Shown: one piece after another, positions 56,845 through 64,000 of the stretch | Position numbering within the stretch: the stretch's first letter is position 1 | How the letters are laid out: the number at the start of each line of letters is the position of its first letter | Source: Escherichia coli | GTDB lineage: Bacteria; Pseudomonadota; Gammaproteobacteria; Enterobacterales; Enterobacteriaceae | Assembly: GCF_013122565.1 (NCBI RefSeq) | Contig: NZ_CP053258.1 | Strand: one strand, 5' to 3' | DNA length: 64,000 nucleotides | Notes under the pieces: model-generated | What the model saw: the letters and a program-made list of their open reading frames with translations, nothing else | Databases searched by the model: none | What the model was told of the DNA's origin: nothing | Translations under genes and position numbers: made by a program

Positions 56845-57252
56845 TCACCCCGCCCGATGATGACAGCAGCCGGAGAGATTTTCGATAATCGGGCAGTCGG
56901 CGCTGTCATCGCCAGGGCAGGCATTCGCCAGCGCCAGTAGCTGGTTGCGCATGGATTGCAGTTCTTCGATATGTCGCTCGATCTCCGCTACCTTCTCCAG
57001 CGTACGACGTTTGACGTCGGCACTGTGACGCTGCGGGTCGTTAAACAGATTCACCAGCTCGCCGCTCTCTTCCAGGTTAAAGCCCACCTGGCGCGCCTGG
57101 CGCAGTAAGGTCAGTTCGTTGAGATGCTGCTGCGTGTAGGTTCGATAACCGTTTTCGCTGCGCATCGGCGGCGTCACCAGCCCCTTCTCTTCATAGAAGC
57201 GGATTGCTTTGCTGGTCAGGCCGGTAATTTTTGCTACATCGCTAATGTTCAT
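56845..57252 (-). CDS. cueR: MerR-family copper-responsive regulator CueR (135 aa)
   Basis: N-terminal MerR HTH ([26 protein letters not shown]) and C-terminal metal-binding Cys pair. Confidence 0.94.
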
Positions 57253-58424
57253 CGTTCGCGCAACGCCTCCTGTGCTTTATTAAAGGGTTTCAACAGATAA
57301 TCCAGCACGCTTTTTTTGCCGGTGCGGATATCGACCGTCGCCACCATGCCGGGAAATATCGGAAACTGCTGTTTATGTTTATTTTCCAGATGGTTGCTAA
57401 AAGTGCGAATGTATACCCGATAGTAATAAACATCGCGCCGCACTTCATCCTGCACGGTATCCGGTGAAATCACCGCCACTTCTCCCGGCAGGCCGCCGTA
57501 GATGGAGTAATCGTAGGCAGTTATTTTCACCAGCGATTTTTGCCCCGGATGGATAAACGCCACATCGCGCGGGGAGATTTTTGCCTCAATCAGCAGTTGC
57601 TCATCCAGCGGCACGATGGTCATCAGTTTACCACCGGGGGCGATGACGCCGCCAACCGTGGTGACATCAATATCCTGAACAATGCCACGAACTGGCGCAG
57701 TAAAGTTGAGCCTGGTGAGGGAGTCTTCACGCCCACGGATCACCGAACGCTGGGTTTCCACTTCCGCATTGGCTTTCGCTAACTCTTCCCGCGCCTGAAC
57801 GTAGTATTGCGTGCGCACGTCGCTGAGTTTGTTTTCCAGTTCATTGGCCTGGCGTTGCAGGCGCAGTACTTCGACGCTGCTCGCTGCCCCCTGTTTTACC
57901 AGCGGCTGGGTCATCGCCAGTTCACGATTGACCAGACTGATCCCCTGCGTCAGCCCGGTGGTGGCTTTGTTCAGCCCGTCGCGGCGAGTGTTGTACAACG
58001 CCGTTTCCGACTCGATAAGTTCGGGGAATTTATTCAGTTCGTCAGGGAAGACCAGCGGTTTATTGCTCACTTCCGCCCGCAGCCGCGCCGAGGTTGCCAG
58101 CGCAGCGTACAGCCGCGACATCGCTTCCTGGACGTCGGATTCCGTTTTAGTGCGGTTAAGCTGCGCCAGCGGCTGGCCCTGTTCAACTATATCGCCAACT
58201 TTCACGTTCAGATGATACAGAATTCCGCCTTCCAGCGACTGCACTACCTGTTCGCGCCCGGAAGGTTCTACCGTGCCGCTGCCGGTGGTGACTTCATCAA
58301 GCTGGAAGTACCACGCCCAGCCAAGAAAACAGAGCAGCATCACAGCGGTAACGCGTACCGCCAGCGCCGAACGCGGCAGGCGGGGTTCGGTCAGGCCACG
58401 ATTGTATTGCAGTTGTCCGTTCAT
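57249..58424 (-). CDS. Type I secretion periplasmic adaptor (HlyD-family membrane fusion protein, 391 aa)
   Basis: N-terminal TM anchor, long coiled-coil, C-terminal beta domain; 4-nt overlap with cueR stop and with the upstream ABC gene. Confidence 0.88.
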
Positions 58425-63500: not shown

Positions 63501-64000
63501 TCAGTGTAGGTCCACTGCGTGCCGTTGGTGGTGAGGGTGATCCAGGTCGCGCCGCTATCAAGGCTAATCTGCGCCACTTCGCCGCTGGCAAGCCCCGCTC
63601 CCAGCGAACCGGTCAACGTGAGCGAGGTATCGCTGGTGATAAAGTCAGTTGCCGAACTCCCCGTGTCGGTGCTGATGCTGGCGATGGTCAACACCTGCGC
63701 CGGGTTAACGGTATCGATCTGCGCCGACTGGCTGCCGGTTGCGCCAACGTTGCCCGCCAGATCGACCACCCGCACCTGCCAGGTGGTGGTGCCGTTGGTG
63801 AGCGTGCGTCCGTCAACATAACTCCAGTTGAGGCCGTCTGCGGCTAGCGTCACGTTTACCCAGGTTGCGCCGTTGTCGGTACTGATTTGTGCGAACTCAT
63901 TAGCCCCGAGTGCAGCCCCCAGCACGCCACGCACGGTAAGCGTGGTGTCGCTGGTAATAAAATCGCTGCTGCTGGTTCCGGTGTCATCGCTGATGCCGGT
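60587..64000 (-). CDS. Giant repetitive T1SS-secreted adhesin (Ig-like/FG-GAP/RTX), C-terminal 1115+ aa; N-terminus beyond window
   Basis: ~100-aa Ig-like repeats (…VRVVDLAGN…), FG-GAP/VCBS-like repeats, RTX nonapeptides (GGNDTLNIGNGGHDTL), C-terminal signal ...LLANHQLMVV; stop 3 nt before the ABC exporter start. Confidence 0.88.
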   Translation of the reverse strand, partial: TGISDDTGTSSSDFITSDTTLTVRGVLGAALGANEFAQISTDNGATWVNVTLAADGLNWSYVDGRTLTNGTTTWQVRVVDLAGNVGATGSQSAQIDTVNPAQVLTIASISTDTGSSATDFITSDTSLTLTGSLGAGLASGEVAQISLDSGATWITLTTNGTQWTYTDSRTLTDGSYVYQVRVLDLAGNTGPVVSKTVVVDTINPTATPTIVSYTDDVGQRQGTLSSSQATDDTTPLLNGVLSGPLASGEVVYLYRNGLLLGAVTMVGALNWTYSDSGLVSGAYTYSARVVDLAGNITASSDFVLTVDTSIPTTLAQITSQTTRDTTPIISGVITAALASGQYVEVVINGKTYTSQPGGAVVVDPAHNTWYVQLPDTDTLAASATAYNVTAQVKSSAGNGNTANVSTGTVTVNAAIDYTPTWTTASKSTAWGLTYGLDTHGMWTVLANQQVMQSTDPLTWSKTALTLVQSGNNYATSSIADYDRNGTGDLFITRDDYGTGYINGFTNNGDGTFSSAIQVNVGTLTWYGSIVAFDKEGDGYLDFWIGDAGGPDSNTFLWNNAGTLVGNSTTANNGGSATVGGAVTGYLSLNEGSGVDLNNDGRVDLVQHTYNLNNYYTLSSLISQGNGTFVWGQNTINTFLSTAGSGGNSTSVSMTWADFDGDGDMDLFLPASQGRANYGSLLFNTNGVLGSPVAVGATATTYASQFSVAVDWNHDGLMDIARIAQTGQSYLYTNVSNASNWTQSALGSSQSGTTSGVAAMDYDWDGAVDVLVTKQSGSVYLIRNTNTVSYGTSLHLRITDPNGINVYYGNTVKLYNSAGVLVATQIINPQSGMGVNDTSALVNFYGLNAGETYNAVLIKSTGTTASNIDQTVNTSWGGLQATDATHAYDLSAEAGTASNNGKFVGTGYNDTFFATAGTDSYDGSGGWVYSSGTGTWLANGGMDVVDFRLSTVGVTANLSSTAAQATGFNTSTFTNIEGISGSTFNDTLTGSSGDNQLEGRGGNDTLNIGNGGHDTLLYKLLNASDATGGNGSDVVNGFTVGTWEGTADTDRIDIRELLQGSGYTGNGKASYVNGVATLDAQAGNIGDFVKVTQSGSDTIVQIDRDGTGGTFATTNVVTLTGVHTDLATLLANHQLMVV

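Follow-up and report, generated by a model that had tools for sequence, protein, structure and literature searches.

The probable 3' end of a siiEA-type adhesin and type I secretion operon next to cueR in Escherichia coli

We have analysed a stretch of 64,000 nucleotides of Escherichia coli DNA (contig NZ_CP053258.1 of assembly GCF_013122565.1), which in its full length is referred to as the window, and whose last part (57249-64000) carries on the minus strand two genes of a system for type I secretion (T1SS) along with the end of the gene of a giant adhesin. We are highly confident that with this segment the siiEA or O-island 28 operon of E. coli reaches its 3' end, comprising the adhesin end and the two inner-membrane components of its secretion machinery. 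A sequence-only reading of the window had proposed an HlyD-family adaptor, an ATP-binding cassette (ABC) exporter with an N-terminal C39-like domain and the C-terminus of a giant protein with immunoglobulin-like (Ig-like), FG-GAP and RTX repeats followed by a secretion signal, and had likened the ensemble to adhesins of the LapA/BapA/SiiE class with their dedicated T1SS. Formal domain searches recovered all of these elements, and the locus is the one that NCBI annotates as 'BapA-related adhesin SiiEA'. The system as such is already known, since RefSeq lists it by name, the genome of O157:H7 contains it as O-island 28 and a functional study appeared in 2025. What we add are the fold of the adhesin head, the rejection of a LapG site, a deletion scar in K-12 and the frameshift of the experimentally studied O157 allele, which are refinements and do not define a new kind of system.

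Secretion pump and adhesin fragment

The list of open reading frames (ORFs) of the window places the adaptor gene, the exporter gene and the open adhesin frame upstream of cueR, in tight succession and on the same strand (Table 1), with spacings between adhesin, exporter, adaptor and cueR of +3, -4 and -4 nucleotides. Read directly from the sequence, the adhesin stop codon TAG is separated by 3 nucleotides from the ATG of the exporter (60584-60589), and the sequence ATGA joins stop and start both between exporter and adaptor (58421-58424) and between adaptor and cueR (57249-57252). This short gap and the two overlaps suggest co-transcription and translational coupling of adhesin, exporter and adaptor that reach into cueR. 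A simple promoter scan of the 3' end of the adaptor gene found no minus-strand site for a cueR promoter at its thresholds. The G+C content of the three genes amounts to 56-62%, compared to 35-54% immediately upstream.

Both pump components were assigned in model searches. The adaptor scores 328.7 bits against TIGR01843 (type_I_hlyD, cut-off 208.65) and the exporter 835.6 bits against TIGR03375 (type_I_sec_LssB, cut-off 693.1), while the latter reaches only 386 bits, under the cut-off, with the HlyB-type model TIGR01846. By these scores, the exporter is assigned to the LapB/LssB subgroup. It contains the Pfam domains ABC_membrane and ABC_tran and aligns from residue 10 over its full length to residues 9-693 of HlyB. 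Its N-terminal region matches Pfam Peptidase_C39 with an E-value of only 0.029 and, on reading the translation by eye, we saw no cysteine in residues 1-150. In light of this weak score, the lack of an N-terminal cysteine and the alignment to HlyB, the first ~150 residues are assigned to a C39-like domain that, like the one of HlyB, is non-catalytic; the domain noticed earlier is thus present in degenerate form, and the catalytic cysteine of bacteriocin-type C39 exporters is missing. The window in this way holds the ABC permease/ATPase and the HlyD-family adaptor of a T1SS. The outer-membrane component is encoded outside the window region, by a gene of the TolC family that precedes siiEA on its upstream side in Dryocola and in the homologous loci of E. 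coli.

The adhesin frame was counted from its stop codon to the window edge, which gives the length in Table 1, and the 1115 residues of the sequence-only reading correspond to a count from the first GTG. Of the modules of RTX adhesins, tandem Ig-like extenders, a C-terminal RTX beta-roll and an uncleaved T1SS signal were all found. Pfam Big_13 domains cover fragment residues 3-96, 108-200 and 215-307 (E-values 6e-13 to 5e-8) and are followed by an NCBIfam Ca_tandemer match at residues 303-397, which is under its cut-off. In a sequence search of the PDB, this Ig region detects BIg50-52 of SiiE (2yn3, E 5.9e-8). Between residues 479 and 770, Pfam identifies three copies of FG-GAP_3 below 1e-6 and weaker ones. 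The RTX block is short, with one HemolysinCabind match at residues 979-1013 (E 1.8e-4), a weak second one at 901-924 and similarity to the RTX region of CyaA in the PDB (E 1.6e-4). It comprises about four degenerate nonapeptides (GSSGDNQLE GRGGNDTLN IGNGGHDTL ... GGNGSDVVN). Finally, residues 1031-1133 match TIGR03661 (T1SS_VCA0849) with 33.8 bits at a cut-off of 17.6, so that the RTX and secretion-signal features stand up to formal analysis. The protein ends in the tail ...ATLLANHQLMVV, which is common to most homologues and located ~237 residues past the putative ligand-binding region.

This region encompasses fragment residues 398-900 and is referred to as the head. Searched against 1.84 billion representative proteins, it yields 7,211 relatives, with 109 of these matching below 1e-30. 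The relatives that carry a name come from Enterobacter, Citrobacter, Atlantibacter, Rosenbergiella, Dryocola and Acinetobacter, and most of the full-length matches that were extracted continue for ~237 residues after the head to end in ...ATLLANHQLxV. An AlphaFold2 model calculated from a 27-sequence alignment is all-beta and of high confidence (predicted local distance difference test score, pLDDT, 86.7; predicted template modelling score, pTM, 0.90). A Foldseek search of the PDB with this model ranks murine CRTAC1 first (9etn_A, E 8e-16, TMq 0.66) and the propellers of the BBSome and of integrin alpha chains next. The head contains five loops of the pattern D-x-[DN]-x-[DN]-G-x-x-D, in which Asp and Gly are invariant in the alignment of 27 homologues. 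Judging from the model, the head is likely a calcium-binding FG-GAP propeller with an attached beta-sandwich that acts as ligand-binding head, where we infer the binding of a ligand by the propeller. A head that is now confidently modelled as a calcium-binding propeller offers a concrete target for ligand-finding and anti-adhesion work. Outside E. coli, the head has its closest relative in a protein that bears the label Vagococcus sp., is 65% identical and ends in the same tail; since a Gram-positive genus would be an odd host for the substrate of a TolC-dependent T1SS, this label is probably due to contamination or mislabelling.

Table 1. Positions of the operon end, its domains and its neighbour in the window (residues are numbered within the adhesin fragment).
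Feature	Position	Strand	Basis and remarks
cueR	56845..57252	-	NF007590, 308 bits (cut-off 244); neighbour, outside the secretion system
Periplasmic T1SS adaptor of the HlyD family (membrane fusion protein)	57249..58424	-	391 residues; TIGR01843
Final ~95 bp of the adaptor gene, all that K-12 and other island-less E. coli retain of the island, as their ybaT-cueR spacer	57253..57347	-	blastn of K-12 against the window
T1SS ABC permease/ATPase, LssB/LapB type, with degenerate N-terminal C39-like domain	58421..60583	-	720 residues; TIGR03375
Adhesin (siiEA-type), 3' end	60587..64000	-	last 1,137 codons; open to the window edge (base 63997)
Type I secretion target domain at the C-terminus, with stop codon	60587..60907	-	residues 1031-1136; TIGR03661
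Short RTX (beta-roll) block	60908..61297	-	residues ~901-1030; HemolysinCabind
Putative ligand-binding region: FG-GAP beta-propeller and C-terminal beta-sandwich (predicted)	61298..62806	-	residues 398-900; FG-GAP_3; AlphaFold2 model
Last Ig-like extender domains	62807..64000	-	residues 1-397; Pfam Big_13 x3

Homologous loci, allelic divergence and the K-12 remnant

In a megablast search, the island part of the window (57249-64000) was found whole in 957 of 5,426 complete E. coli genomes and the 3' end of the adhesin gene alone in 958. The matches listed are annotated as 'siiEA: BapA-related adhesin SiiEA' (or as 'Ig-like domain-containing protein'), T1SS permease/ATPase, HlyD adaptor and cueR. 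The locus is O-island 28 of O157:H7, located between ybaT and cueR. In strain O157:H7 TR01, it reads glsA, ybaT, a gene of the TolC family, siiEA (20.2 kb), ABC exporter, HlyD adaptor and cueR, and the same order of the four-gene cassette is found in Dryocola. The siiEA gene of Res13 measures 18.9 kb, that of E7-1N7 is intact and encodes 7,223 residues, and intact products in strains other than O157:H7 span 6,308-7,223 residues. The sequence-only reading had expected the adhesin N-terminus and any dedicated outer-membrane factor or LapG/LapD-like regulators beyond the window end. In the homologous loci, the first two are indeed encoded there, whereas lapG and lapD are absent and the next genes are ybaT and glsA.

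Published work describes this island in O157:H7 as Z0608 (tolC28), Z0609 and Z0615 (rtxA28/rtxB28), Z0634 (hlyB28) and Z0635 (hlyD28) (PMC12758282), and the name siiEA was in use for strain UMN026 already in 2011 (PMC3256949). Deletion of the island or of any of its five ORFs reduces adherence to Caco-2 cells at 3 h and colonisation of mice (Niu et al., Gut Microbes 2025; PMC12758282). The same study reports that RstA binds upstream of the TolC-like gene and activates the operon in O157:H7, that calcium increases both expression and adherence in this serotype and that deletion of the island leaves weight and mortality of mice unaltered. As a colonisation factor, the locus is variable, with about 18% of the complete genomes of E. 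coli carrying it.

The window carries a diverged allele of this locus. Compared to O157 TR01, the adaptor is 99.5% identical on the protein and 97.6% on the DNA level, the exporter 98.9% and 96.2% and the C-terminus of the adhesin 96.7% and 93.0%. In the same order, the ratios of nonsynonymous to synonymous divergence (dN/dS) are 0.038, 0.031 and 0.072, which indicates from sequence comparison that all three genes are under purifying selection and which argues that their frames are not chance ORFs. The synonymous divergence (dS) to O157 is 0.27 in the adhesin end, about threefold the value of 0.07-0.09 in flanking core genes (44475-52904), and the alleles of the island have therefore a deeper or a recombinant history compared to the surrounding chromosome. 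The closest complete E. coli genome reaches 94.9% identity over the island, 94.3% over the adhesin end and 98.4% over the core flank, which places the source in an E. coli lineage outside the searched collection of complete genomes with a diverged allele. A 14.8 kb contig from Logan (SRR11451224) encodes exactly the same ABC protein and is 100% identical to the window between 52908 and 64000. The extension past position 64000 called for by the sequence-only reading could thus be made on this contig, where no stop interrupts the adhesin frame over 2,365 codons. The encoded stretch is gap-free and collinear with residues 4859-7223 of the E7-1N7 SiiEA at 98.1% identity.

The island had also been described as absent from K-12, which is true for the island itself except for a remnant of its adaptor gene. 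The ybaT-cueR spacer of K-12 (124 bp) aligns at 94% identity to the last ~95 bp of this gene. A search with a query starting at 57100 retrieved 5,424 matching genomes, from which the listed records were sampled evenly down the ranking, and in every island-less record among them the match ends at query positions 237-248 (window positions 57336-57347), mostly at 245-248. The remnant encodes an adaptor C-terminus that is typical for the family, and it is for this reason not native sequence that was captured by an insertion. The shared endpoint and the adaptor remnant together indicate that island-less strains are deletion derivatives with essentially one endpoint. As judged by these alignments, the island appears to be ancestral at the ybaT-cueR site and K-12 to be a deletion derivative.

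Alternatives, anchoring and assembly

The adhesin N-terminus is best described in the intact SiiEA of E7-1N7. The family model NF047714 (adhesin_SiiEA), whose signature covers the N-terminal 229 residues with a threshold of 425 bits and thus a region beyond the window and the SRR11451224 contig, gives 509.7 bits with this protein. The N-terminus consists of a BapA prefix-like domain (PF22783, residues 5-132; NF033677) and is succeeded by about 53 Ca_tandemer repeats, which are calcium-stabilised tandem Ig domains. Residues 131-153 (locus positions 40601-40669) contain the stretch PWGWxAGAAxGGGAxGALLA, which is nearly invariant in all aligned homologues. This glycine-rich hydrophobic stretch is a candidate for a membrane- or channel-lodged segment. 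A sequence search of the PDB with the N-terminus returned only spurious matches, in which the glycine-rich stretch was paired with NDUFA11.

Several observations weigh against our assignment and its functional interpretation. The allele in the window differs on the DNA level by 5-8% from every complete E. coli genome searched, and because of this divergence the functional findings made in O157 apply to the window by homology. Neither the outer-membrane gene nor the first ~4,000-5,000 adhesin codons are contained in the window or the identical contig, so that an intact 5' portion of the adhesin gene is presumed for the source strain. In O157:H7 itself, the adhesin gene is interrupted, since siiEA of TR01 (locus positions 23339-43497) is annotated as 'frameshifted' and EDL933 contains the two ORFs Z0609 and Z0615. 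Finally, a model of the N-terminal 230 residues based on a 10-sequence alignment is of moderate quality (pLDDT 62) and finds no match in the PDB below an E-value of 0.7 with Foldseek, and the role of the N-terminal domain as outer-membrane retention plug is putative.

The interruption in O157:H7 (PMC12758282) opens the possibility that the operon in the window is a decaying relic, whose adhesin gene is broken upstream of the window edge and does not encode a full-length fibre. This view would agree with the loss of the whole island in 82% of complete E. coli genomes and with several genomes in which the 3' end is annotated solely as 'Ig-like domain-containing protein'. We nevertheless consider it improbable in light of the 2,365 open codons in the contig identical to the window, the dN/dS values of 0.07 in the adhesin C-terminus and 0.03-0.04 in the pump genes and the intact genes in other strains. 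The 2025 paper handles Z0609 and Z0615 as two RTX proteins (PMC12758282). The upstream fragment of O157 would be devoid of the C-terminal secretion signal and the downstream fragment of the N-terminal domain, and the published O157 model is complicated by the fact that each of the split fragments misses one terminal module. The O157 reference strains used in the experiments have a frameshift in this gene, while the full fibre of ~7,000 residues may be made in other lineages, the one described here probably among them.

A second alternative concerns the way the adhesin is held on the cell. In LapA-type adhesins, retention is controlled by the periplasmic protease LapG and the cyclic di-GMP receptor LapD, with cleavage taking place at an N-terminal dialanine site. 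Such control would be consistent with the placement of the exporter in the LssB/LapB subgroup (TIGR03375), which has been linked to adhesins with a retention module (Smith et al., bioRxiv 10.1101/198937), and with the sequence TAAG at residues 97-100 of the E7-1N7 SiiEA, which is found just past the N-terminal domain and ahead of a glycine-rich hydrophobic stretch, in the layout described for LapA. The motif, which the sequence-only reading had suggested to look for, does not withstand scrutiny. The pattern [TAP]AA[GV] occurs nine times in this protein, where eight occurrences are expected from its composition (~0.11 per 100 residues), and TAAG is found only in some E. coli alleles; an 89%-identical homologue lacks it, as do those of Enterobacter, Pluralibacter, Apirhabdus and Dryocola, despite the conservation of its flanks. 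Moreover, a search confined to the loci of three E. coli strains and of Dryocola found neither lapG nor lapD in or beside the cassette. With a motif that is unconserved and at chance level and with no flanking lapG or lapD, we reject TAAG as LapG cleavage site and regard LapG control as very unlikely. 

Two further possibilities have next to no chance of being correct. The original annotation of Z0609/Z0615 as 'RTX family exoprotein / toxin' would make the protein a cytotoxin, as might be suspected from its HemolysinCabind match, its resemblance to the RTX region of CyaA and a T1SS of HlyB/HlyD architecture. However, a long RTX block, a hydrophobic pore-forming domain and an acyltransferase gene, which characterise toxins of the HlyA/CyaA type, are all missing: beyond the few degenerate nonapeptides, the remainder consists of Ig-like repeats and a beta-propeller, there is no acyltransferase gene in the four-gene cassette of the O157:H7 TR01 and E7-1N7 loci, the exporter strongly favours the LssB over the HlyB model, and O157 mutants lose adherence while deletion of the island is without effect on weight and mortality of mice (PMC12758282). 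Equally remote is a system as in Salmonella pathogenicity island 4 (SPI-4), where SiiE is held and released by the MotAB-like proton channel SiiAB, which would fit the name siiEA and the Ig similarity to BIg50-52 of SiiE, but not the four genes found between ybaT and cueR in homologous loci, none of which resembles siiA or siiB, the BapA prefix-like N-terminus or the window adhesin with its FG-GAP propeller, its RTX block and its signal of the VCA0849 type. To our knowledge, the latter three are not among the features described for SiiE.

For the siiEA operon, a mechanism can be proposed from knowledge of the family and from the O157 experiments, with the order of secretion, the mode of retention and the role of the propeller being the conjectural parts. 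The ABC exporter, whose degenerate C39-like domain would no longer be able to cleave, would recognise the unfolded adhesin by its uncleaved C-terminal target domain, and the chain would be threaded C-terminus first through the exporter, the adaptor and the TolC-like channel. Outside of the cell, calcium would fold the RTX beta-roll, the tandem Ig-like extenders and, near the tip, the calcium loops of the propeller. The integrin-alpha/CRTAC1-like propeller would then serve as likely ligand-binding head, and the BapA-type N-terminal domain together with the following glycine-rich hydrophobic stretch would likely anchor the fibre to the cell.

We tentatively combine these features into a joint interpretation of three parts, to which, taken as a whole, we assign somewhat less than an even chance. 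First, the tip of the fibre would be a calcium-loaded propeller resembling CRTAC1 and integrin alpha rather than a series of Ig repeats, and a cassette of this head, ~237 residues with RTX repeats and the ATLLANHQL ending would be shared by thousands of T1SS adhesins in Enterobacterales and Acinetobacter. Second, retention would proceed independently of LapG by means of the BapA-type N-terminal domain and a nearly invariant, hydrophobic glycine-zipper stretch. Third, the island would be ancestral and K-12-like strains deletion derivatives that kept ~95 bp possibly for the cueR promoter, with cueR maybe partly co-transcribed with the adhesin operon.

The surroundings of the operon show differences to other strains. 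The CueR protein is 100% identical to its O157 counterpart. An ORF of 409 residues on the plus strand (55615-56844) adjoins cueR; it has no NCBIfam and no recorded Pfam match, is missing from the O157, E7-1N7 and Res13 loci and is found at a coverage of at least 80% in 270 of the 5,426 E. coli genomes. Further upstream on the same strand (53837-54853), a 338-residue ORF encodes a YadA-like trimeric autotransporter with C-terminal anchor, which is intact in the window, whereas its counterpart in O157:H7 TR01 is annotated as pseudogene with an internal stop. Between mnmH (selU) and ybbP, the window (43764-44474) is without an RHS element, where O157:H7 TR01 and Res13 carry the gene of an RHS core protein.

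Comparison with known systems

The closest relative is O-island 28 of O157:H7, an orthologue that shares the site, the gene order, the domains and 96.7-99.5% of the amino acids. It differs in a DNA identity of 93-97.6%, depending on the gene, and in its adhesin, which is distributed over two ORFs compared to at least 2,365 uninterrupted codons in the lineage of the window. BapA of Salmonella enterica is likewise a giant adhesin with Ig repeats, a BapA prefix-like N-terminal domain (identified by NF033677 and PF22783 on the homologue) and a dedicated T1SS, and it functions without LapDG. Its secretion system, BapBCD, consists of TolC-like, ABC and HlyD-like components, and in Salmonella the outer-membrane gene follows bapA. 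In contrast, the outer-membrane gene of the system described here is found upstream of the adhesin, and NCBI keeps SiiEA as a separate 'exception' family.

With LapA and LapBCE of Pseudomonas fluorescens, the system shares an N-terminal domain, an array of Ig extenders, a ligand-binding region, RTX repeats, a C-terminal signal and an exporter of the LssB/LapB type. Unlike in LapA, there is no LapD or LapG beside the operon and the dialanine motif is unconserved and at chance frequency. SiiE, encoded on SPI-4 of Salmonella, is equally a giant calcium-binding T1SS adhesin built from Ig repeats that mediates intestinal adherence and shows detectable similarity in its Ig domains, whereas here SiiAB is missing, the N-terminus is different and propeller and RTX modules are added. 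The predicted head, finally, resembles the propellers of CRTAC1 (ASPIC/UnbV) and of integrin alpha chains in combining an FG-GAP propeller with calcium-binding loops and a subsequent beta-sandwich, but at 15% sequence identity and as one module within a bacterial fibre, a likeness that concerns the fold only and has no bearing on the ligand.

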